A DNA stretch of 64,000 nt from Harriotta raleighana. Taxonomy: Eukaryota. The notes under the pieces are model-generated. The model searched no databases, was not told where the DNA came from, and worked only from the letters and a program-made list of their open reading frames with translations. Made by a program: the position numbers and the translations under genes. This document shows positions 2,823 to 45,300 of the stretch, in pieces; position 1 is the stretch's first letter; every line of letters starts with the position of its first letter. The stretch lies in contig JBNZDD010013373.1 in NCBI GenBank assembly GCA_050575255.1, positions 210,662 through 274,661 on the forward strand, in the 5' to 3' direction.

Positions 2823-5800
2823 GTATGATTTATTCATTTTTGCCAAACCAAACTTTAAATAATTATTAAGATTTAGCAAATTTCATGGGTAGAACTATAT
2901 TCAGACGAATATTTTCTGTGAATTGCTGGGACCAGTGAAATAATTTTTTTAAAACAAGGAAGTTGTTGCCCTTTGTGTTTCTCTTTGTAATAAAGAAGGA
3001 AAATTTTCTTTGGCAATAACAGTAAAATGTGTGTATTCTAAATAAGCTCTAAAATTAGGTTGAGCAGTCATACATTTTCTGTTGATGTTTATTTGTTTTA
3101 TGAGCTCTTAATTATTCTGTTGCCACCTTTGTTTTCTATTGGGTTTCAAATTGCATAACTGGGTTAGCAACCTAGAAACGGGTGTAGGGTATTCAGTCCA
3201 TCAAGCCTGTTCTGAAACCTGGTTCTTACAGCTATGCTGGAGATGGGGAGAATGATGGCACGGTCGAAAAAGGAAAGACTTGAGCCGTGACTTGAAGGAG
3301 GCTAGGGAGGGGGCGAGGCAGAGGGATTGCGGGATGTAATTCCAATGATTGGGGGCAGAGTGACTGAAGGCTTGCCCACCAATGGTGGGGCAGTTAGGTT
3401 GGGGGACATGAAACAGACCGGAGCTACCTGAGCAGGGAGACTGGACAGGTGGTCGAAGCCTATTAGAGACTCATCTGGTTCTTCCCCATACTTTCATTTC
3501 CATCAGGGATGTCTGGTTTTTCTTTGCAGTAGCACTCAGGCTAGGAACTCGGTCAGGGAATTGAACTTGTGTTCTGCCTGTCAGTGGCAATGGTACTCAA
3601 AATTTCATCAATGTCGCAACAGATATCTACTATGGATTTAGAGTAGCAATTGAGGAAAGACTAAAATAGCCAATAAGCCTATGAAGGTTTATATTTTTAT
3701 CGATCCGTTTTTTTTACCGCGGTTCCAACATTTCTTTGCCTTTTAGGAATTTTGTAATGATGTATCCCAAGGTCACAGAATGTTTAACAGATTCTTCACT
3801 TTGACAGATGTGTATTCCATAAACATAGTTTAATGAACACGCATGAAGCGGTTACCTAATAATTAACTATAAGCTTTTATTTGCAGCATGAATAGCTGAG
3901 CTTCAGTAGGTTATTTGATAGCGTTAAATTAGTTTTGAGTTACAAGCCTTCCAACAAGTACAGAGAATGCGCAGCAGTGCTAAATAGCCTGCCTTTGTAT
4001 TTAGAGGCTTAGATTGCAGTAATTATCATGAAGCACAGATTTGTTGAAAGCTCAGTGCTTAACAACAAGCTTGACTCAACTAATATTCTTCTTGCAGATG
4101 AGTGCTGAAAGGAAGCTGGAGATGCAGCAATACAGACAGAAGTCAATGGAATTGGAGCACAGCTGGGAAAATGCTGAAAAAAGTGCCTTACTCAACCGTG
4201 TACAAGAAATTATTGAGAATGTGCAGGTTTGTATTGCTTTTGCAACTTATTTATTTAGATTTTAAATGCCTAGGCTGGCCCGTCATCCAGAATAATGTTT
4301 AAAAAGAAAGAGATGCTGGTCTATATATTTTTTTAAAATACTTTTTATAACAAAAAATACTGTATGACATTCAAATATTGATAATTGCAATATTTCAAAG
4401 TTGCTGTTAGTTTGCTGAACAGAGTTGTTCTGTCCTAGTAAAAAAAAAAAAATATTAACATGATTTGATGTGGGTTTAATTCCTTAATGAATGTCACCTA
4501 TTAATTTGCAAATCAAAATCTGGGAAAGGATGTTGAAGTTAATCACAATTAGTTGTAAACAAACTTACGATAAATCCACCTGATAAAAATTTAATTCTAG
4601 CAATTTGCCTAGGAAAAGTATCATGCAAACCTTTTGGTGTTTTCCCTAGATTTATTTTAATTTATAAAGTTGTTACTTGTTTTAGTTTGGTGAAACAGCT
4701 AAGTACATAAAGCAAAGTGTTAGTTTAGTTAAACAGCTAAGTACATAAGAACATAAATGCTGGACGAAAAAAGATAAAGTTCCATCTAGCTTGCCTTCTA
4801 CCTTTCCTGGCTTGCATAGATGACCCTATGTGCTGTATCCCATAATGTTATTCCCTAAAAGAAAACTATCTAATCTGCATCTGAAGGAATCAACACTTCC
4901 TGCTTCAATCATCCCCGAAGGAGTCTATTTCACAGGTTCACTATTTGCTCACTGAATTTTCCCCCTTTCAATCGCAGACCGTGACCTCTTGTTTTACTTT
5001 TCTGGACAAGTTGAACCAGCTTGTCATATTGTCTACTTCCTTTAAAATCTTAAAGCCAGCAATTATGTTGTCTTTCAATCTTCTCTTTTCCAGCGTGAAC
5101 ACGTCCAATTTACTATGTAGCTCCTCATAGTAACAAATGACAAATGCTGAAATAATAACTTTTTATTCAAACATTAATTATCAACAAGGCATTAACAACA
5201 AAGGTTTCATGGAATGAAATGGTAAACCCTTCCTGTGTATCATCGCTAAGCCTGTATAATTGTGTTTACAACTGAGCCATGGATACAAAAGAGCAAAGGA
5301 TTACTTTGCAAATTTTGTAAGGTAATCTACTAGTATTGATTGAATCTTAGGTTCCATTTAATGAATTATTTTGTCATTGATTGCTTGAAGAGACTTTCTG
5401 GATTTAAGAAGGCAACATTAATAGATAGCTTTCTTAAAAAATGAAAAATACAAATAACTGGTGTGTTTGTCTTTGGCAGCTATCAAAACTTTATCACTCT
5501 TAAGTTGTCTTTGGAGCATTTGTCAGTATTAATTGCTTGTAGATTAAAATTAAAAATCAGTTGTTAAAAATGATCACAACCATTAAAAATTAGGTGTGTA
5601 AAATAAGTTTGGTTCAATTTAAAATATTATAATGTAAGCAGAGGCACATTGGCTCATCTTTTAAATAGGAAGTACAACTACCGTGAACACTATACATTTT
5701 GAGTTGATGCATGTTGTGTCTTTTTATTCTAAAGGTACGGAAAGTGCCAAGAACTGTGTGTGTCAAAAAACCTGTCGCTCAAGAAAAAATTGATGCAACA

Positions 5801-8800
5801 AATGGATTTACAGCAGTGCACCATACTGACTATTTTTCAGCTCTTGAAACTCAGTCTAACAAGCAAGAGGGCCTCATTTTGTCAAATAAAACTGAATTGA
5901 TGTTAAATGACACAATCACTAATGAATCCGAACAAATTGAATTCCTCAAATCCACTCAGAGTATCAAATCTGACAATGTTGTTTACACAGAATCATTCTC
6001 TTCCAATGGCACCAACATTGAACTTTCCACGAATATGAACCCTAAAAAAGATAAATTAGAAATCAATGTTCTTCCTCCTGCAAAGGAATCCCCTGATCTC
6101 TATGCAATGAGTCTTCAGAATCTTCTCAGAAAGTCGAGAGAATATGTGGAGAGAGATCAACATCGGCGTACTGGGAGAAATGCTTCCAAGGAAGGTACAA
6201 ATGGGAGCCACTCGGACAAAGAAAATGAAAGTGTTAAAATCAATGATTGGGAAAGGGATAGGAACAGAGTTTCCAACAGAAGTCGTAGTTCTAGTCCCGT
6301 GATTGTGGAAAAATCAATCAGTTTGAAGTCAGCTGCACAGATGCAAGTTGTCTCCATAACCAATGAAAGCTTTGAATTACACCATAAAATGACAGTTAAT
6401 ACCCCCACTTCAACTTCGTGTGTTTCACCAAAAGTAGACTTTCCAGTAAGATCAGTAACAGCCTTGTCTAAAGAATCCGAATCAGATGAATGGATTAACA
6501 GCTCAGCATACGAACACAACAGCAGTTTGTTCAAGAGTCTGATAGGATCCCATGCCAAATTACCCAACCCTGAACCAAGCCGAAGCCCGAAGATGCATCA
6601 AAGATGTTCTCGGACATCGGCCAATATTCAAATTAACCATCCAGTGAATGCCTATGACTTAAGTCCAAAAGAAAAGTTAAGACCAATAACTGGGACAGAT
6701 CAAGGTATCAAAAAAGCTGTGAATACGCTTGAAATCAGGAAAGCATTTCCAAATGAAATTTTGCCTTCAGTTAACCAAGAAGCAATTGAACATAGTTGCG
6801 CCAAACTGCAAGATCTTTCAGAAGGTACAGTGAAAGCATTTGATGTGCCACCCGAAGGTATATTTGCTGAGCCTTTTAGTAAATTTGAAGGAAACATGGT
6901 CAGTAACTTAAATCCAATACTGTTGAGAAGCCAGATTCATGGAGAATCGTTTAATTTGGATGGCACTTCTTTCCCTGTAGCTAAACAGAAAATCCAACTG
7001 CCTGAAACTGAGACTGAACCTGATGTCAGCAGCCAAAAGTCTAACACTGTGATTGAGAAGCCTAAGCAAAGGTTACAGGTTGATCTTAACAAATCCTATG
7101 ATATTGAAAGTCCGTCTCCCATACTGCTGCAAAGTCAACATAAAAAGCGACAAATGGATTTATCAGGTTTATCTTCTGGAAGCGAAAATAATCTGGAACA
7201 AAGCATTGAAACCAAAGCCAAACGTAAATTAGATCTGGAAGTGTCAAAGGTCAAAGAAAACAAACCACTTGTTACTACGACTATGGGCTCAATTGTTCAA
7301 GAGAAGAACCCATGGATACAAGAGGAGAAACATCAGAAAGATCATCTTGGCAGCTACAAACCTGAAAGATCTTTAAAAAGCCACATTAATGTCTCAGGTA
7401 AGAACTGTAGCTATCCTTCCAGATACAGTACTCAGGTGCGATTATGTGACTCGTTGACCCTACATTTCTTTGTTTAGAAGATGGACTGATCTCAAAACAG
7501 ATGAAAGCTTTTGAAGAAATGCGGAAGCGATTGGAGCAGCAACACACTTTGCAGTTATCCATGTTAATTGCTGAACAGGAGAAGGAACAAGAGAAATTAC
7601 GGCAGGTAGGAAGTTTTACCAATAAATAAGCTCCACGTTTTGAGTGAGGTTTGTTATAAAATATAGACAGCCATTATTGGAAAAAGAATATGATTTAAAC
7701 TGTTTTATTGTTTATTTTTCTAGGAATACTGCACTTCACAAAACCTGTGAATACTCTAAACTGGTCCTTTTTTGCACTCTTTAAATTGTGGGATTGCTTT
7801 TAACATTTAGAGGAAACTTAATCAGCTTTGAATGTCAAAACACTTTACACTTGTGATTTTCACATCAGGAGAATGTACTGAAGTGCTTGATAATTCTGGC
7901 TGGGCACTGGAACTGAGTGGGGTAAGGATGGGAATGATGACTGAAAGCAGGGTTCGATGGGTATATTTTGAAGCATCAACAATGATAATGTAATTTAGAT
8001 GAGGAGCTATGTTTAGGATCTGCAAATGCACTGTCAAAACTGGCCACCTGCAACATCAGCTGCAGCTGTTCTGCTTGGTGCAATAGAGGCCAGCAAAGTC
8101 ATTTTGTTTGTTCCCATTGGCCAACGAGACACGAACGACTGAAATAGAATCATTATATTTGCATGTATTCTGTAAATAACTTCAATCAAAATATTAGACT
8201 TTTTGATTCATTCTCAACATTTGAATTTGCAGGAAATAGAAGACAAGGAAAGACTATTCAGAGAATCAAAGGACTTTGTGATGGATTCGCACAGAAGCTA
8301 TTTCAGTAAAGAAAGCTCCTTCGATTGGAAGAGAATAAGTGAAAACTGTTCTATGGAATCCGGGCCCAATCGAATGGATGGTGTGCAATCTGTATTTCTC
8401 ATAGCATTGACAATTTGAAGTTCAGAACATGTGTATTTATCTTAAGACCACAAATGTTTTATATGCAATGGAGCACCTATGGTAGCTATTAGTTTTTTGT
8501 TCAATATTTTGAAATATTTATTTCAATGAGAACTAATGTTTTTTGTTCTGATTTTTGTCTAGGGGTTATCAATAATTTAGCTATGCAGAGTTCCAGTTTG
8601 ACCATGCCAGGCACTGAATCTGTTTTCTATCGAAGAGGAACTGTGACTGCTGAAATATCTGAAATACAGGCTCCCAGTTTTCTCATCAGATCAAAGCCTG
8701 GATGGTCACAGGTGATTTTGCTGCCATATACATTCATTTATAGAAGGAATCTCAGTGATGAAATTCTCACAATGATGATGAAAATTTTAATGGACTTTCT

Positions 8801-11800
8801 ATTTCAATGAAAAGGCTAGTAATATCTTCAAAAGTTCCATATTGCTTATTTAACTTCTAATTATCTCAAATCATATGGTAGTCGAGCTATTTTGTTCCTC
8901 CCTTGCATCACTTGTTTTTATAAATAGTCCCTGTGAATTATGAGAAATTAAAACTTAATTTTGCTTAAAACAGCTAATTCATTCATACAATGGTAGTCCT
9001 CTCAACTCGTATCTAATGCAGTATAAGGGAAATGCTATATTGCACTGATTGACAAAGATACCTTCCTTCAGAAGAGACTTGAAACCGAGATCCCACTTTC
9101 CTGTTCATACACAATTCAAACAGAAAAGGGAGTTTCTCCCAATATCCTGGTCAACCGTCTCAGATACAACAGGAATTTATCATTCACTCCTGTTTTGTGG
9201 GACATGACATTAGCTGCTGTGTTTGCATTATTTCATGTCTCTTCAAGTTGTCAAAAATGCTTACTTTGTGTGGGAACCAATTAATTGTGTGGGGTTTAAT
9301 TACCTTCTGTTTTATTTTCAATATTCAAGAAATAAATGTGATATTTTGAGAGCTGATTAGACCAAGTCTTTGAAGTTATATCGTTACTTCTGTGAAATAT
9401 TTATCTTTTACTATTATTTCTACTCCCATCTTATTTTGTTTTATTGCATTTAAGATAAATACGCCAAAGATCCGGCAGATGTTTGATAAAGTCACAGCTC
9501 TTGCAAAAGGATTCCTCACTCGCAAAATGCTGGAAACCGAGAAACTGAAGCAACTTCGACAGACTGTAAAAGTGAGGAATTTACTAAATATGGCTATTGA
9601 TCTGGTTATGATTAAATGTTGAAACAAAACTAGAATAAGTTTCAGAATTATCTAGGTGTTTATTAGCTGTCAAAAGTTTGCTATCTTATCTGTATAAACC
9701 TTGGGCAGAAGTATGAAAATTCTAGGGGAAATATATGTAAATAAGACATTTTTTTAAAAAAACGGAAGCAAGAAAAACATCAATTGGGGAAGAGAACATT
9801 CAATTGGAAAGTTCAGCACTTGCAGTGGATTGTAAATTTCCTTTTTATGTTCACTATGTAATTTCTTATATTTGTACTAGCTTTGTTGATGATAGGATGT
9901 AATAACTTACATCTGCAGTTATTTATTGCAGGATACGTTAGAATTTATGAATAACTTCCAAAAAGAAGGACCTTTGAAAAGAAGTGTTGTTTCATCTCAA
10001 GATGTTTCATTGAAGGAAAGAGTTTTTGCTCAGGTATTAAATCAAACAATAATTTTTTTCATGTGGCCAAACAACAAACATAAATAAAATGGATAACCAT
10101 TTGTCTTGTTTTCTTTCCCCAGTTACGAGCTGCCCTCTATGAGATTCATGACATCTTCATTGTGTTAAGTCCTGCTGAGAGAATGCAGATCCTGCAACAC
10201 GACCGTGAAATTCGGAAAGAGAAACAATTGCGGCAGATGGTAAATTTCTGTGACATTTGATATCTGAATGAAATAAGAGCGTGGTACATTGCTGTGTGCT
10301 TAAAATATAATAATAATTAATAATCCTTGCATTTGTGATAGCGCCTTATCGCATCTTCGAGACATCTCAAAGCGTTTCACAGAATACATTGTAAATCGAC
10401 TGTATATTTTGTGGGCGAAATGCAGCAGCCAATTGTTTTACATTAACCTTTTACAAAAAGATTCTAATTTATAGCATTCACCATCTTGGGTCCCAAACCT
10501 CTGATTAACCAGCGCCCTGGGACATCTTTCAAATGTGAAGGCTGTTTTACTTGCTTTCGCAAAACTGGCAGCTTTCCTGATTCTTGGTTCTCCTTTTTCA
10601 CTCGATTTTTGGATATTTGCATATTTATACATTTGGGTTTGATTTGCTATATTTCTTAGCGCAGTTCTTTACTGAGCTATTTTTTAAGGGGGAATATTGA
10701 TAATATTGCTATCAGCTTTCACCAACTCCTTTCATCATTGGAGCAGAGTCTGGAGGTTGTCTCAACATCCTTCAACTTATCAGAAGACATTCCCATTTGC
10801 ACAACAAGCCAGTAAGAAATAATAATTATACTGTACCATTGTCTCTACTTACGATAATATTGCTATCAGCTTTCACCAACTCCTTTCATCATTGGAGCAG
10901 AGTCTGGAGGTTGTCTCAACATCCTTCAACTTATCAGAAGACATTCCCATTTGCACAACAAGCCAGTAAGAAATAATAATTATACTGTACCATTGTCTCT
11001 ACTTACGGTTTTGTTTTATTATTTGTAGGAGAAGCGGAAAAGTCCGAAAGAAAGAATATCCCTTTCTGCTGCTACACAGAAATCTTTAGACCGGAAAAAG
11101 CAGCTAAAGTAAGTGCAGCTATAGTTAGTAGCTATTGTAATTTTTTTTACAATTCAGATACTTAGTTGAAAATTGTTTTGCAGTTATAGTTTGCCATAGT
11201 TTTACCGCTGCAATATACTTTATAGCTCTGAGATGCTATTCAAAGTACTTATTGGGGAAAACAAATCTGTGTTACTGCAATCGTATATTAAGTTTGTTTT
11301 TCATCTTGTCAGAAGTTTGATCAGTTTTGTCTTATCAAGGGCTGCTGAGATGGGAATAATCAATAAACAAAAGTTAAATGCAAAACAAAAGGTTTCTTCT
11401 CAAACCAGGTAAGGCCAGAAGTATACCATAATAAATTATATTTATGTACAACGCCTTTCATGTGAACAAATGTCGTGAGGTGCTCGATGAAATGAATTAG
11501 AAATAAAGGTGTTGTTATGGAGGGAAAATTAGAAGTAAAATTACACATTTGCCTCTGGTTATTTTCAGAATTCTTCAGCCAAGTCAGGGGCAGAATGCCC
11601 CAACGCAAAGGGCACTCCATAGACAGGGGTAAGATGCAATGTAACTAATCTGAATTTTTACATTATTTTGTATTATGGTCATTTGAATTGTAGCAGAATT
11701 GGGTAAGCAGGATATATCCCTCCGGGGAGGAAGCGTGCATTCCAACAATCTATATCTGGAATTTTAGTGCAGATGTGATGCATCGAATGTACAGTTTGGT

Positions 11801-15914: not shown

Positions 15915-16054
15915 TCCGCGCATGCGTGTCCGTCCGCGCCCGTGGCCCCGCCCCCTCCCCCAACCTCTCGGCTCCATGGCAACGGGCTCCGTGGCAACGG
16001 TCGTCATGTGAGAGGTCAGAGGGCAGCAGCCCAGTCAGCTGATGGAATGGGAAG
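15915..16054 (+). promoter_or_regulatory. VPS35L: VPS35L CpG-rich promoter and 5' UTR
   Basis: NRF1-like GCGCATGCG near 15918; GC box; two X-box-like GGCTCC(A/G)TGGCAAC at 15970-15998; GTCATGTG E-box; AAGATGGC YY1-like motif over the ATG. Confidence 0.7.
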
Positions 16055-16071
16055 ATGGCTGCCGTTCAGTG
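16055..16071 (+). CDS. VPS35L: VPS35L exon 1 coding part (MAAVQW); second assembled copy at 16476-16492
   Basis: AAGATGG Kozak context; TG|GTGAGA donor in phase 2 matches exon 2. Confidence 0.85.
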
Positions 16072-19000
16072 GTGAGAGACTTGACAGCCCCAGCGCCTCA
16101 CCTCACCTCCTCTCCTGTCGTTATTATATTGCTGCACACACAGGGCTCACAGTCAGACAGTCCCGGGAGTGGGGTGTGGGGGGGGAGAGGGAGGGAGGGA
16201 GGGCGGGGCTCCCTGAGCAGGTCTCTCCCAGTGGAGACTGCAGTCTCTCCAGCCGCAAAAGCACTGAGCTCTCCCAGTGTCCNCTCTCCTGCCGTTATTA
16301 TATTGCTGCACACACAGGGCTCACAGTCAGACAGTCCCGGGAGTGGGGTGTGGGGNGCGCCCGTGGCCCCGCCCCCTCCCCCAACCTCTCGGCTCCATGG
16401 CAACGGGCTCCGTGGCAACGGTCGTCATGTGAGAGGTCAGAGGGCAGCAGCCCAGTCAGCTGATGGAATGGGAAGATGGCTGCCGTTCAGTGGTGAGAGA
16501 CTTGACAGCCCCAGCGCCTCACCTCCTCTCCTGCCGTTATTATATTGCTGCACACACAGGGCTCACAGTCAGACAGTCCCGGGAGTGGGGTGTGGGGTGG
16601 GGGGGAGAGGGAGGGAGGGAGGGCGGGGCTCCCTGAGCAGGTCTCTCCCAGTGGAGACTGCAGTCTCTCCAGCCGCAAAAGCACTGAGCTCTCCCAGTGT
16701 CCCAGGGTTGGGGTGAGGGGAGTGGGAGGAGGGGGGTGGGGGGGGTAGGGGGTGGGGGTGTGACAGGGGCTTCTTGTCCCGTCTTCAAATGCCTCATTGC
16801 CTGAAATGTGCAATAACAAACCTGACACTCGTTTCCTCTGTATAATGATGTGCTGTCTGTCCCCATTGATGTAATTGTGTGTGTGTGTATGTTGGAAGTA
16901 AAGTTCCTGTAAATAGTGAGGCTGTCATTTGATAAAGAATCTTTTGAGGCACCCATTCTAGGCGTTTCGCCCACAAAATATACATCGGGTTCACGTACCA
17001 TCCCTGTGATTGCGGTTTGAGACGTCTCGAAGACGCGCTAAGGCGCCGTGTCAAATGCAAGGATTGTTATTGTTGTTCTTATTTATTATTGTTGGCTCGA
17101 ATAGCGATAATGGTCCCTCCGTTTAATTCCTGCTGATAATAATGCCACATCAAGGCGTCGAAATGGCTCGGAGAACTTCACAGGATTGAGAATAAACAGA
17201 GCAAGCAGTTTAACCCAAACCCAAATCAGTGCACGGGAGTTTTGTTGAGCGTTAAAAGACGGGTCATTTTTGGAGTACACAGAGTCTTACCTCTTGATGG
17301 GTTTGCTTACCCTCGTTGAGGCATTTGTCAGAATGGGCTGTCGCAGAGAAATATTGGTGCGGTGGAAAGGTTCAGCTGGTGAAATATTGGTGCATTGCGA
17401 TTGAGGGGGCTATGAAGAATAAAAGTAGATGTGTTGAGGACAACATTTTGAAATGGCTGCAAATCTTGTTTATGTGGAAGTGTTGTTGATTTATATGTTT
17501 ATTTTGATTCCAAAGGCATTCCAGATGCAGGAATTACAAAGCTGAGCTGGAAACAAGTCGCTTTGAGGTTGTACCTGTGGAGTTTGGGGACTTCCATCCT
17601 CTGAAACTTATTACTGTAAGTTTAAAAGCTGTACAGCTAACTTGTGTCTATTGTCAATTCAATAGCAAACACTGGAAATTAAATCAATTAGTCAAATGAA
17701 GAGGATTATGAATATTCTTTATAAAATCCGTAATTGTTATAGTTTAACATCCTAACCAACAAACGTGTACACTTGCCATACATGTTTCCTGCCTTGCAGT
17801 TAGTGGTCTACCAATAGTAAAGCCTTCGTTCTAAACATACCTCTTCAATATTTTGGCGTTAGTAGGGATGGAATTGGATATTGCTTGAAAAATGCAACAT
17901 GAATATTTAAACAGTACATCATATCAAGCATGCAAGCGCATGTTCCATTTAATGTACATTTTCTTTTGTACATGAAAACTGTCAATCTTGTATTGCCTAG
18001 GGTACTGGAATCTATGGCTTTTCCATTGGCTTCTGCCTTCACATTACAAACCAACATCATAACAGCTAGTTTCATACTTGAACTGCGTTCTGCATAATCA
18101 GTTGTTTTCTCTGCGCAATTGGCTGCCGCGTTTCACCCACAAATATACAGTCAATTCACTTTAAGGTATATTCTGTGAAGTGCTTTGAGACATCGATAAG
18201 ATGTGAAAAGCGCTATATCAAATGCAAGGATTATTATTATTTTCCTCCTCTGACTGTAACTGCTGACTTAGCAAGTGGCTTGTTCATGCAGTGATATGTT
18301 CACAAGAGGTAAATCCATGAGTAATTGATTTGGTTGTCTTTTGCAGGTCACCGATTCAAAGACTAAGAAGGTTGGCCGTAAAGGAAGTACTTCCTCTACT
18401 TCCTCGTCCTCATCAAGTTCGATATTGGACCCTTTGAGCAGTTTGCTAGATGGCAGTGACCCACTGTCACTGTTTGCAGCAACAGCTGATCCTCTGACAT
18501 GCACTGCATCCAACACAACCGGGAAAAACAACACCAATATGGTACTTTTTTTTAACTGTAGAGGTGCCATAAAAGTTTGTTTTTAAGCTTGTTTGGAGAG
18601 AGATAGACTGACCTCCGAGTGTAGGCTAACAACACAAGTGGAAAAGAGTGGGAGAGGAAATTAAGAGTTCAGATAGATATAGTGCCTTGGGACTTCCTCC
18701 TGGTGTGAAATGCGCTCTATAAATGTAATTTTGTTGTTGGTAACATTGGTGATGCCTAGTTTAGATTTTCTAAATGTGTGGGTTTAGAGGAGGAAGGGAT
18801 AGGGGGAGTTATAATTCCACCTTGTTAAATTGGCTTGTTGGATAAGAAGCTGCCGATTAAAGGGATAATATTACTCATTTGGTTTATGGTGGAGTTAATC
18901 AAAACTAAGAACTGTTAAAGAAAATAATTGTCTTTGATACTTGAAGTCCTCTCCTCTTCACTCTCTCCCGCCCCTCCCCCCCACCCTGCCACTCTCCCTT

Positions 19001-22000: not shown

Positions 22001-25000
22001 CATTGCACTGTGCACTCCGTTCACTTCCAACCATCAGCTGTCCTTTCATGAAGTCACCTTCCGTCACTTTCTGCTTTGTTGTGAGTGAAGGGATTGCAAT
22101 GCAGCAGCTTGTTAATTACTTCAATCAAAAATTAACAAGCTACTGTTTCGATTCTTGCTATAGGAGACGTCTAAAATTGACATTGTTTTTTAAAATTAAA
22201 CTTAATTCTCTTTTCAGTGTTCAAAGCTGCTCTCCGACACCACTGTGATTCAGTTTTATCCAAGCAAGTTTGTTCTGATCACTGATATATTGGATACCTT
22301 CGGTAAGGACAGCTATCAGCGTTTTATTTGTAGCACCTGCAGCAACATGCTTTCTTGTACAGGTGGACCCCGCTAATTTGGTCGTAGTTTGGTTCTTGAA
22401 AAGTGCGACTTATGCGAAACTCGTTAAGCGAATACATTTTTCCCATAAAATAAATGTAAAAATTGGAGTTAGGTTCTTTTGAACATTTCTTGTCAAAATT
22501 TTCTATTAAAAAAATTATACTTGCTCCCCAACTGCCTGCTCGGCTCACTCACTCGCTGCCGGTCTCACTCGCTGACGGCCTGGCTCGCTCTCTTGATGCC
22601 GGCCTGGCTCACTCCCAGGTCCTAGCACCGTCGTGCCCTCTTTTCACCCGCTGGCAAACGATGTAATAGTGAACGTCGCAATGTTAAATAAATGTATGTT
22701 CCCAATGTATCAGTAATGTAATAACGAAAAAAAGTTAACCGAAGTGACATTAAGCGGGGTCTATCTGTATTGCAAGGTCATGTGTTATTTTAAACTGTGA
22801 ACATACAGTCTGAGCTATATAAGGAGGATGAATAAAACCTAGAATACAAGCTATTATATTTTATTATTGTGGTGGTTAGAAATGCTTCATTAACAGTATC
22901 TCCATGAAATGCATCTTCATGTTTATTCCATTGATTCACTGAAGACGTAACTCATTCTCTCAGTGCAGTTGAAAGAATATATTTGTAATTGAACTCGTGC
23001 AATCAATACCTACCCCTACAATTTAGGCCTGGTTTATACTGCAAGTGACATGGCAAACTGCCACAATAAATGCAGTTTAAATTTATGCTGAGCTGGAGCC
23101 CAGTTGCTGAGATCACCCTGAGTTCATTTTGATTTGTTACACTGCAGTATAAATGTAATGGACGAGGAACCATTTAGTTTCTGCTCAGAAATGGCCCCAT
23201 AATGATTCTTGGGTGAACAAAACACAAAATGCTACAGATGCTGGGAATCTGAAACAAAAACAGAAGTTGCTGGGGAAACTCAGCAGGTCAGGCAGCATCC
23301 ATGGAGAAAGGAAAGCTAACGAAGTGTCGTGGACCCGCAACGTTGACTCGCTTTCCTTTCTCCATGGATGCTGCCTGACCTGCTGAGTTTCCCCAGCAAC
23401 TTCTATTTATGATTCTTGGGTGGCTTGTTAATAACATTAACACTGGCTGATTGTGCATTAAACTCTCCACAGGGCTGGTCAATGAGATTAGCAGCAGGAA
23501 GTAAATTGGATTTCCACTTTTAATGGATTCCATTCTGGAGGGAAGCAATATGGTTTCCCTTTGTGCAAGAGACATTCTCTAGGTTGAAGTTCTGTAGCGG
23601 TCGACTTATATCGTACTGACAAAATATAACCTATGTTTAACTTGCATTCGCCACAAGATGGCACAGATCCTGATCAAGCTGCCAACTTAACATCTCTAAA
23701 GTTTGTTTCTAAATCACCCATTATTCAGTGACTGTACCTATGCCAATCCTTGGGAAACTCTGATCAGACACCACAATTCGTTATTATTAAGTGGTTAGAA
23801 TTTTTTTTTAAAAAAAGGATCACTGGAGAACAAAACTATTTGGACTCAAATTATTTTAGAGATTCCATCATCCGCAGGAGATGAGACACCGATCATCTTT
23901 GCTAATTATGTGTTGAGGAAAGATTTATGATCAAGGATCCTTTGCTCAATGAGGAGGCACTAACAGCTTGCTGCATCCCCCATCCCTGCAGAACACTGAT
24001 CAAAATCAAATGTGCCATTGTGAAATGTGATTTTGAAAAACTGGCCTCCAGTCAAGCTATTTGGATGAGTTATTTTAACCACTCAAACATCACTCCTGTC
24101 TTTTTTTAATGGAGGTGGGAAGCTAACTGAATACATTTGTAGCCTTGAAATCTCTCCAAAGGCATTCATCAACCAAAATGAAATGTCTTTAAACTAAACC
24201 ATATATGTGTGAGAACATTTATTACTGTATGAAAAATATTTACTTTGGAAATTGGGTAGTTGACCTGGTCAGCATTTTTATTGAGTATTCCTTAATGAAG
24301 AATGATTGAACTGTGACAATGTAGTGTTCTGTCTGCACACCCTTATATAATGTTTTAGACCTTTGTTTTCAAGAATTAAATATAAACCACATTTTGCTTG
24401 CAGGTAAACTAGTTTATGAAAGAATTTTGTCCATGTGCACAAGTCGGGTTTCAGTTCCTGGGGCCTCATTGCCAGGTAATGTGAAAGAATTGAATGCTCT
24501 TGGCAGATTAGGTGGAAACCAGTCTGCAATATTTAATGGTGGCAGATGAACAGATAACCTGGAAGCTTTCTTCCTTGTTTTCAATCTCAGCTGAACAATA
24601 CAGTGTTGCAAGAGAGTTTTTGAACAGTTGAAAAAGGGAACGTGAAAACTAATTGCCAGAAACAAAGCTTGAACAAATGCCCATTTTATGAAGTTGAAAT
24701 ATCTCAAAATACAGTAAAAGCCTGTTTTTCCGTGACTCGATGAACTGGAAAATCTGTTGAACCAGCATCTCCCCAAAAAAGTCCCGATTTGATAAACTGA
24801 AAGTTATCTGGCAGAATAGCGACAACGCATTTAATGAATCGATTGTCGCACGCGATAAATATGTAGGTATTTCAGCTGCTTGCTAGTCGAGCCTAAAGTC
24901 GCAATACTGCTTTTTTTTTAAAAAAAGTCGTGCTACTGCCATTTTAAAAAAAAGTCATGCTGCCGTTTTGTTTTCCTCCCATAGCAGCAATTTCAGAAGT

Positions 25001-42300: not shown

Positions 42301-45300
42301 ACCCCTCCTCTTCTGAAAAGCGATTGATTTATAATATTACAGAAAGAATGCCTTTTTTGGCTTGGCTCCTCATACAAGTCTAATACAGTCTCTTACTTGG
42401 CAAGGCCACATTGTGATAGAGAATGATTTGAATTTTGTAGGATAAATAACTGACTGGCGTTTATTTCTCAGCTATCATATGTCAGTTACCCCATTAGCCG
42501 TGGAAGCTCAGAGGCAAGATATGACCAAATATAGTGTGGGATTCGTAATGAGACTGCATTGGCACACAAGCACAATGACTTTGGCATGGAAATTGAATTG
42601 GTATTGGCATCTTTCTCATTTGTGTTCCTAAATCAAAGCCAAACCCCAAGGCAGAATAAGTCAAATACATTATGAAGCTTCTTGATTTTTCATCCAGCGG
42701 ATTTGAACCTCAGTGTGAGACAAGCTCTCGGTACTATGTCAACAGGCCCTCCCTCTATTCATCACATTGCTCTCGACACCTATCACAGTGAAATGGCTCA
42801 ATTAGTACTACATTTAAGATGAACGCGGTATCTACCATCAGGAAACCAGATTCCAGCTAAAGACTTTGGCTGCCAGAGCCTGCTCTGAGTTCCAATGTTA
42901 AACAGAGATCAGAAATATCTATGTGGGATCTACATTGATTTTCATTCTGTTCTCTCTCTCGCTCTCTCTCCCCCTCTTCGTGCTAGATAATAATGAGCCA
43001 ATAAACTGGATGCTTGAATGCAGCACTCACTCCTCTTTCTTATAATGTGATTCATGTATCTTCCATGTACACATTCATGTACTGGGATATTATTCACAGA
43101 GCATTGTCCTTTCAAGAGAAGGGAATTTCTCTGTGTGTCTTGGTCAGCAATGTCCCATACAAAATTGATCATTCATGTTGCAGCTATTTGTGGGATATTA
43201 CTGTGTGGACACTGGCCAGGGTAGGTTTCATTTGATCAGGGCTAGCTCAAGAATTCAGATTGTACACATCTTATCTACCTGGTTATCTCTAAATACTGAT
43301 GGATACCATTTTACTTAACAACAACATCTTTTGTCTCTAATAATGTCATTATATCTTGTTTTAGTATCTTTTTAGTGCTAATTCCTCTATTTTCCCTTTG
43401 TTTATTTCACAATGGAGTCCCGCACTCGTCTCGCAAGTGAGAGATTTGAGTTCAATTCCCGGCAAGTCAGGGTGAAACCTTGCACAGGTTTCCGCAGTCG
43501 TATGGAGTAAGTTTCCTTCCACATAACTAATAATAATCTCTCAATAATAATAATAAATTTGTCACTCAATCCATGGCTGTTTGTGGACACCGCTGTGCGC
43601 AATTGGTGGCCACGTTTCACCCACAAATATACAGTTAATTCGCTTTACAGTATATTCTGACTATCTCCCGGTCTCCTGGCCTCCAAAGCCCCGAACAAAA
43701 AGGCGTGAAAACCGCTATATCAAATGCAAGGATTATTATTTTTATTGTAGGTTCACATTTGATTCAGAATCAAATGCTTCTCTTCGTTATTTTGACTGAC
43801 TTACAGTGAACATATTTTTCTCTCTGTTACAATCACATACAGGATTTAGGTGACAGACCTGCTTATTGTGTAAAAGAATAAAAATGATTTGTAAGGGCTT
43901 GACTGTAATGAATTCAAAAGGTATTAAAAGGTGGACATGGGCCAAGAGAGCAAAAAGACTGCTCTCAACTCATCATGAATTGCCACTCGATTGGCAAACT
44001 CGCTTGAGAGGTCACTGGATGGCTGATGTGGGAAATAGAAAGTGACACACTGGTACAGAAATAGATGCTCTTCCAGCATTGAGGCATTATTGGGAGAGCA
44101 GTGGGAGCTTCACACTACATCATTGCCAGGCTTTACCTTACTGGTGATACCTTGTACTGAAAATAGTCATAGCTCACGCCAACATCCATTATCTCTTTAG
44201 ACAAAAAAACAGAAGTGGCTGGGAACGCTCAACTGGTCAGGCAGCAACTATGGAGAAAGGGAAGTGAGTCAGCATTTTGGGTCCACGACCTTTTGTCAGA
44301 ATTGGGGCCAGTTGGAAGGAGAGGCTTGTAAGGACTAACAGAGAGGGGGCAGTCAGGGCAAGGAAGACAAAGGTGAAAATAGGATGGAGGGCAGGAGATG
44401 ATGGGTTAAAGAGGTTTTGATGGTGCAAATCAGAGTGGGGGGGAATCGCCAGAAAACAGGAGAAAAGAGATGTTAATAATGCAAAACAAAGGGTGGAGAG
44501 AGAAAAGGAGCGTCTGAGACCCAGGTGATGTGGCAATGGTCACAGAAGATCGGGAGGGGGATGGTGAGGTGTTATGGTCTTAAATTGTTGAAATAAATAT
44601 TGAGGCTAGAGGGCTGTGAAATCCCTAGAACTACTATCTCTTTATCTATTATATCACCATATCAAAATCTCTTGGAACTCAAAACACATAAAGAACGACT
44701 GAGTATCTATGCGATGCTCTCCATCTATCGAGCTGTGTTTCAGTAAGCATACTCATTATAGGCTGTGTGACAGATCACACCCATATAATAATTATTAACT
44801 GCTAATGAGCAGTTTTTTCCCCCCAACTGCTGTGATGAATCATTCATCCATCTCATCTGCACTTGGTGTGGGAGGGTGGGTGCCTCTTTGTGACAACTGA
44901 CTGTGATTTGGAACTTGCTGCATGTGTAATCACGGAGTATTCAGTTTGTAGTATAGTATTAGGTTGGTTTGTTTTAGGGTGTATCTGTGAGATTTAAGAT
45001 TGTAATCTGAAAGCAAAACTGAAATTAAATTAATAACCATGACATTGAAAGATTGCCTTAATTAATTCACGGAAGATTGTAATGCATTCAGTCCATCATG
45101 TCTTTTGTTAGTAGTGTAGACACAGTCGAAGTGATTGACATGGACAAAAGGATGAAAACTATGCTTATGATAGTCAAGGTTTTGTAGCTTATGTTTTGTT
45201 CTAGTTCAGCATGTTATAGGCTAAATGTTATAAGCGCAGTGTAAATATATATATTTACAAAATAATTTTGCATTTGATGTGCATCTCGTCATATTGTCAA

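Follow-up and report, generated by a model that had tools for sequence, protein, structure and literature searches.

The insert and its surroundings

The window, that is, the whole 64-kb stretch of DNA analysed, carries on its + strand exons of VPS35L which match PDB chain 8p0v_O over residues 39-94, 214-242 and 461-500, and one intron of this gene hosts a 193-bp insert (23216-23408) located about 0.9 kb from the donor and about 1.0 kb from the acceptor. The exon directly after the insert (residues 242-259) matches the same chain weakly (E 0.5). The insert belongs to a repeat family whose positions are numbered on a 139-nt consensus, with +1 at the first base of hammerhead stem I, and the features of the locus are as follows.

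22303..24403, + strand: host intron of VPS35L, with GT and AG at its ends
23202..23215, unstranded: left target-site duplication, 14 bp, exact match to 23409-23422, not extendable
23216..23316, - strand: long arm, antisense of family +139 to +39 in alignment with the consensus, one-sided tail included
23216..23250, - strand: tail of about 34 nt, family +105 to +139, on one arm only
23262..23316, + strand: left arm of the perfect 55-bp hairpin, exact reverse complement of 23350-23404, not extendable
23316..23348, + strand: broken minimal type I hammerhead (G5A, stem II G to T, A13C, 5' strand of stem I missing)
23316..23408, + strand: short arm, sense copy of family +5 to about +97
23350..23404, + strand: right arm of the perfect 55-bp hairpin, exact reverse complement of 23262-23316
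23409..23422, unstranded: right target-site duplication, the same 14-mer as 23202-23215
44203..44616, - strand: solo copy without a tail, older and from a related subfamily, including a portion of the 3' untranslated region, 72-77% identical to the long copies L244/L248 in two stretches

The long and the short arm meet with one shared base, 23316. An original prediction, made from the letters alone, had described the 14-bp duplication, the exact 55-bp arms, VPS35L as the host and a related copy near 44.3 kb, all of which were confirmed, the last by a match of 82-85% over 44205-44292; this solo copy lies antisense to VPS35L.

The arms at 23262-23316 and 23350-23404 constitute the sole perfect inverted repeat of at least 14 bp with a loop of 3-200 nt in the window. 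A fold of -124.8 kcal/mol was computed for the insert, compared with -49.2 +/- 4.5 for 200 dinucleotide shuffles, and the sampled arm pairs have predicted pair probabilities of 0.93-1.0, by which the long hairpin proposed for the VPS35L pre-mRNA is borne out as a prediction. The best Rfam match in the window, the mir-354 microRNA family, fell below the gathering score and reflects the long stem. The sense arm stops (23388-23396, + strand) before the pyrimidine-rich, acceptor-like motif of the family at about +95 to +107, so that the insert would give the intron only a weak acceptor-like site. As far as its sequence tells, the locus shows no sign of function and is a dead insertion far inside an intron.

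Elsewhere in the window, a tandem array with a 26-nt unit occupies 17-358, and exons of another gene, presumably CCP110 by gene order, lie upstream of VPS35L at about 4030-8420 on the + strand, including one open frame of 589 codons that spans 5708-7474. Local duplications, exact or nearly so, at 10699-11006 (154 nt) and 15936-16623 (176 nt at 421-nt spacing, near N) are likely assembly overlaps; single-N duplications of similar type were seen in several family loci.

The hammerhead in the insert and in the family

Compared with the family consensus, both core changes named by the original prediction are real, namely G5A at 23318 and A13C at 23338, while a stem II change of G to T at 23325 had been overlooked. 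Since the sense arm begins at core C3, the 5' strand of stem I is absent, a point likewise overlooked, and the stem I pair probabilities are 0 in the predicted fold of the insert, whose hammerhead would be cut after 23344. The expectation that this copy of the ribozyme is inactive thus appears sound, given the two core changes, the missing helix I strand and the computed lack of helix I pairing. The minimal type I hammerhead read from the family consensus likewise holds at the level of sequence, where the full core is present, with a helix II of 5 bp. The core is intact in 52 of 153 family arms, which fits the minimal, dimer-type hammerhead described in the accessible part of PMC4209133. No hammerhead match to Rfam was obtained anywhere in the window at E up to 5.

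Size, sampling and age of the family

With the insert as query, 2,395 candidate places were found in the 1.1-Gb genome, 40 of which were scored. Exact patterns matched genome-wide 223 times for the tail, 859 times for the hammerhead and 1,585 times for the arm, and a looser pattern of the hammerhead core gave 1,899 matches versus 1 for a control pattern. The loci studied comprise the 30 best BLAST matches, 90 tail-anchored loci from the first 100 listed of the 223, 30 hammerhead-anchored loci of the 859, and 90 arm-anchored loci from the first 100 listed of the 1,585, from which six were dropped for N or duplication to leave 84. Since the pattern-anchored samples were drawn from the top of the listings of exact matches, they favour well-conserved copies.

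Family copies occur as solo stubs, as palindromes, and as long copies with remnants of a reverse transcriptase (RT) and a GIY-YIG endonuclease. Eight tail-anchored loci were dropped, and the 82 N-free ones comprise 48 palindromes and 34 solos, of which 30 and 11, respectively, have duplications of at least 10 bp, compared with a maximum of 8 in 96 mismatched-flank controls. The duplications of the family are 70% A+T.

The insert had been called young, which was not upheld: it differs from the consensus at 7 of 201 aligned bases (3.5%) and ranks 26th of 78, with a median of 4.0%, which indicates an average age. Although it is the only perfect-armed copy among 52, the mean of 3.4 arm mismatches leads one to expect about 1.7 such copies by chance under a Poisson distribution, and its perfect arms are therefore unremarkable.

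The parent element

Upstream of the unit, some copies retain a 3' untranslated region, preceded by a GIY-YIG motif, a linker rich in cysteine and motifs of the RT, and the order RT, GIY-YIG, 3' region and unit was observed in L075, L243, L244 and L248. In the copy L244 the unit, at 96% identity, follows the RT motif at a distance of about 1.5 kb, and this copy is 96.9% identical to the long arm (23216..23316) of the insert. The Penelope-like origin that had been proposed is thereby supported, the arms being 97% identical to a long copy with RT and GIY-YIG remnants. Pfam detected RVT_1 (E 0.0023) and GIY-YIG (E 0.0036), both below the curated cut-offs and on broken frames; three L075 fragments gave no Pfam match, a PDB search with the parent RT gave no useful one, and no intact parent gene was present among the copies translated.

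L243 and L245 are long copies with inverted ends and a tail on one side, and in L252 and L257 the tail is continuous with the element body, an arrangement known from the repeat-to-ORF junction in other Penelope-like elements (PLEs). A cysteine cluster precedes the GIY-YIG motif in L075 and L244. A Zn-finger-like linker between RT and endonuclease is common to Neptune and Nematis in the accessible text of PMC8557442, and the cluster, read from sequence, suggests one of these two clades, the name Neptune being tentative. With RT/GIY-YIG, hammerhead, one-sided tail, and inverted copy with duplication all found, the family is an endonuclease-bearing PLE.

Junctions probably made anew

According to the original prediction, the insert is a non-autonomous palindromic mini-element that spreads by being copied as a unit. 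Palindromes are indeed common (48 of the 82 N-free tail-anchored loci), and one composite of a palindrome with tandem pieces, belonging to an older subfamily, recurs with shared downstream sequence at L178, L192 and L222, with a similar junction in L192 and L222, so that some forms, other than that of the insert, have multiplied; this composite was either re-mobilised or duplicated. The junctions of the palindromes are nevertheless all but unique. Forty-seven distinct pairs of inner ends occur in 48 sampled palindromes, joined with overlaps of up to 14 nt or with filler, and no fixed internal junction common to copies at different sites, as in a MITE or a retrozyme, was found among them. An exact search of the 1.1-Gb genome finds the insert junction once, and a single further place differs from it by one mismatch. 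Hence each palindrome was likely made at insertion. The palindromic junction, which had been expected to recur, is particular to this locus, whereas the palindromic architecture itself is common. Palindrome lengths from 99 to 641 nt, grading into long gene-bearing copies, also speak against copying as a unit, as does the insert's want of an upstream promoter-like region and of stem I. For this locus, the junction search largely refutes such copying, and we consider this explanation very improbable.

The reading preferred here, with a probability of about 0.7, is that the insert consists of two cut-short copies of the same PLE end, placed head to head in one insertion in which both strands of a staggered cut served as primers for reverse transcription of the element RNA. 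The two head-to-head element ends had been proposed before and are borne out.

Two 3' borders and their pairing

The 3' ends of 301 arms fall into two clusters, at about +100 to +108 and about +136 to +139, some 34 nt apart. Among the arm-anchored solos, 20 end with the tail, 20 are short and 5 are of other kinds. A tail arm is paired with a short arm in 31 of 34 classifiable arm-anchored palindromes, five more being unclassifiable, which deviates from independent choice with P 3.8e-7. A second calling method gave mixed pairs in 32 of 38 palindromes of the same sample and in 83 of 90 overall, 48 of these having been picked by their tail.

In 76 palindromes the two arms share 15 non-CpG variants, compared with a mean of 3.8 and a maximum of 11 in 3,000 re-pairings; L048, which belongs to another subfamily, and L032 were dropped from this count. 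All 78 palindromes together give 23 shared non-CpG variants versus 4.6 in re-pairings, and unshared arm differences amount to 222 sites. The sharing could alternatively reflect later gene conversion or one dominant source locus.

Within 83 palindromes, the short arm reaches further 5' in 43, as in the insert, the tail arm in 28, and both equally in 12. The tail arm hardly exceeds the tail in 4 of the 83 (inner end at +92 to +117), meaning that almost nothing is duplicated there. A bias towards stalling of the tail arm is weak (15 versus 5, P 0.04) and could be mimicked by later deletions. In a check for priming by homology, overlaps between duplication and element average 1.1 nt at 17 tail ends and 1.6 nt at 18 short ends, among 30, many being zero.

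Strict pairing and shared variants would follow without extra assumptions from self-priming, in which a hairpin arises as the antisense strand turns back on itself near the ribozyme and serves as its own template; staggered resolution of this hairpin by the endonuclease would then account for the one-sided tail. Such fold-back, on an antisense template, was proposed for inverted PLE junctions in the accessible part of PMC3846280, and the tail is ascribed to endonuclease resolution in that of PMC8557442. The near-unduplicated products (4/83) are, however, impossible under fold-back without later deletion, and together with the further 5' reach of the short arm in 43 of 83 they argue against a plain fold-back of the tail arm. 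Many junctions are filler or short overlaps rather than a loop, and solo copies end at both borders, several with duplications of their own. The enzyme studied in vitro, moreover, uses nicked DNA to begin copying sense RNA at both borders, as described in the part of PMC11167929 at hand. We therefore regard self-priming as unlikely.

Another explanation supposes that each protein subunit brings its own RNA and that these two RNAs are copied from the two target strands, and it agrees with the preferred reading on the staggered cut, the run to the RNA 5' end and the joining by repair. Both strands are extended in vitro and the protein is a predicted dimer (PMC11167929, in part), and most arm differences are unshared (222 versus 15), which suits separate templates. 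Nevertheless, an extra rule would be needed for the subunits to pick different start sites in 31 of 34 palindromes, no clear mixed-subfamily palindrome with a duplication was seen, and in L048, the sole divergent palindrome, both arms carry one and the same type of variant. Shared variants would then come only from a few active source loci or from later gene conversion within the hairpin. We regard the use of two RNAs as unlikely and rate it somewhat below self-priming.

A 5' wall in front of the hammerhead

In the pooled arms, of whose loci the hammerhead-anchored ones (30 of 210) had been required to reach +5, 168 arms reach +6, and of these 119 end between -3 and +6 (13 per position), 14 end between -31 and -4 (0.5 per position), and 35 continue. 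This wall coincides with an initiator-like motif, has a TATA-like motif about 29 nt upstream, and also resembles a 3' splice site with a branch-point-like motif, all four assignments being ones we take from general consensus motifs. The stretch from about -40 to +2 (e.g., L244:2957-2998), which holds the promoter-like and 3'-splice-site-like motifs, is kept in most of the long arms inspected.

A spliced template is unsupported, since the 40 nt before 116 arms ending at -3 to +5 have no common upstream exon and show only 12-nt matches to five parent copies. Nor was a cap-derived extra G evident: of 35 arms with +1 to +5 intact, 23 are preceded by the templated C and 3 by G. At the predicted cut, genomic 5' ends form no peak, with 7 at +33 to +35, 14 at +27 to +32 and 6 at +36 to +41. 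Ribozyme-cut RNA was considered as the main template, as three short arms of the tail-anchored sample end at exactly +34, and was rejected on the 301 pooled arms, which have no such peak.

As to published parallels, so far as the accessible parts of the sources go, TATA-like and initiator-like motifs lie in the pseudo-LTR of rotifer elements (PMC3846280), and in Drosophila virilis an intron ends at helix I (PMC4209133) and transcription starts further upstream (PMC2377424). For the wall of the present family, a transcription start is our first choice of cause and trimming to a protected edge the second.

Proposed priming from both strands of one cut

The reading of two-strand priming draws on parent copies, junctions made de novo, the coupling of tail and short arms, shared variants, the 5' wall and the enzyme in vitro. 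Direct observation covers the family and its RT/GIY-YIG parent, the fixity of the outer ends, the variation among junctions and the presence of duplications, and the steps below are all read from fossils, no intermediate having been seen. The element protein would cut the target with a stagger of about 10-16 nt. Of the two DNA ends, one would prime at the far tail border (+137 to +139) and the second some 34 nt further in (+100 to +108). Both would probably use a single RNA, on which the rear copy would displace the front copy. The copies would run to the likely RNA 5' end before the hammerhead (-3 to +6) or stall earlier, and the two new 3' ends would be trimmed and joined by repair with short overlaps or filler. 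In the insert, the tail-side copy would have been kept to +39 and the other to +5. The product at this locus is a dead end, having no upstream promoter-like region, no stem I and a mutated core.

The in vitro work on a lizard PLE protein, as far as the accessible part of PMC11167929 describes it, demonstrated that the protein nicks and extends both strands and starts at both tail borders, and that ribozyme cleavage is unneeded. The start site was the same for both strands in that system, which alone does not explain the strict pairing of tail and short arms.

A more specific and more tentative version, which we hold to be possible and somewhat doubtful, is that a pair of proteins primes one RNA twice, invariably once per tail border; this RNA would have the first base of the hammerhead as its 5' end and would serve as template without being cleaved. 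The RNA would be copied twice by strand displacement, and the short palindromes would be run-off copies of the transcript leader. If true, inverted ends, one-sided tail and target duplication would all be explained in one step. For the in vitro system, the counts predict strict pairing of tail and no tail, a single RNA as the source of both arms, and an RNA whose start lies at the front of the ribozyme rather than at its cut site. This coupled double priming of one RNA was not found in the literature searched.

Target sites

At L032, L145, L159, L175, L176, L194 and L205, the flanks after the tail record independent insertions at nearly one position of an abundant repeat, in which the duplications of L034, L132 and L147 also fall, and which is common in the window as well (families D2, D3 and D6). 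At least 7 of 148 tail flanks begin at that position, a figure that stands uncorrected for the abundance of the repeat, and the repeat is possibly a preferred target.

Comparison with known systems

Descriptions of PLE insertion units in the accessible portions of PMC3846280, PMC8557442 and PMC2377424 include a pseudo-LTR in inverted orientation, a tail of 30-40 bp at one end only, and duplication of the target. The present family resembles such endonuclease-bearing units in its head-to-head 5'-truncated copies, tail of about 34 nt at one end, duplications and pseudo-LTR hammerhead. It differs from the units described there in that both copies of the insert are cut back to the ribozyme region, leaving 193 bp with the look of a MITE, and in duplications of 10-16 bp versus 8-10 bp in the rotifer cases. 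The pairing of tail and no tail and the sharp 5' stop were counted here, and no such counts were found in those portions of the three papers.

Poseidon PAc of Anolis carolinensis (PMC11167929, in the part accessible) is similar in its two start sites bounding the tail, the extension of both strands, AT-rich targets and a tail at the repeat-to-body junction, whereas in the present parent RT and endonuclease are separated by a cysteine-rich linker, as described for Neptune and Nematis. Inverted products and a stop at the 5' edge of the ribozyme are not discussed for PAc in that part.

The hammerhead agrees with the minimal ones of metazoan PLEs, as far as PMC4209133 is accessible, in its type I core, 4-bp helix I, extra base before helix II and palindromic 15.2-16.2 with no loop, for which a dimer is predicted to be necessary. 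It departs from them in a helix II of 5 bp and, in the insert copy, in the loss of helix I and of two core bases. In Schistosoma, the same source places opposite-strand hammerhead pairs 100-700 bp apart. No study of such palindromes in cartilaginous fishes, or of twin priming by PLEs, was found in a search that covered sources other than subscription papers and Repbase/Dfam.

Two further kinds of element invite comparison. In LINE-1 twin priming, a second primer from the other target strand yields an inverted piece that is joined by repair, and the present products would share both the second-strand primer and the repair-joined inverted piece. LINE-1 inversions do not duplicate the template, whereas most products here duplicate 40-100 nt and have two fixed internal starts. 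Like MITEs and non-LTR retrozymes, the copies are short, non-coding, numerous, and palindromic or hammerhead-bearing; unlike them, they have no fixed junction, asymmetric ends, no tandem ribozyme repeats and continuity with an RT/GIY-YIG element. Such stubs may be mis-annotated as MITEs or as microRNA hairpins, as the below-threshold Rfam match illustrates.

An inverted truncated copy with one-sided tail and duplication has already been described for PLEs, and the insert is an ordinary member of this known kind. With its ribozyme broken, it is useful mainly as a record of the probable way in which PLEs insert, and the family provides a large natural data set on how PLEs make inverted ends with a one-sided tail and on the role of the hammerhead.
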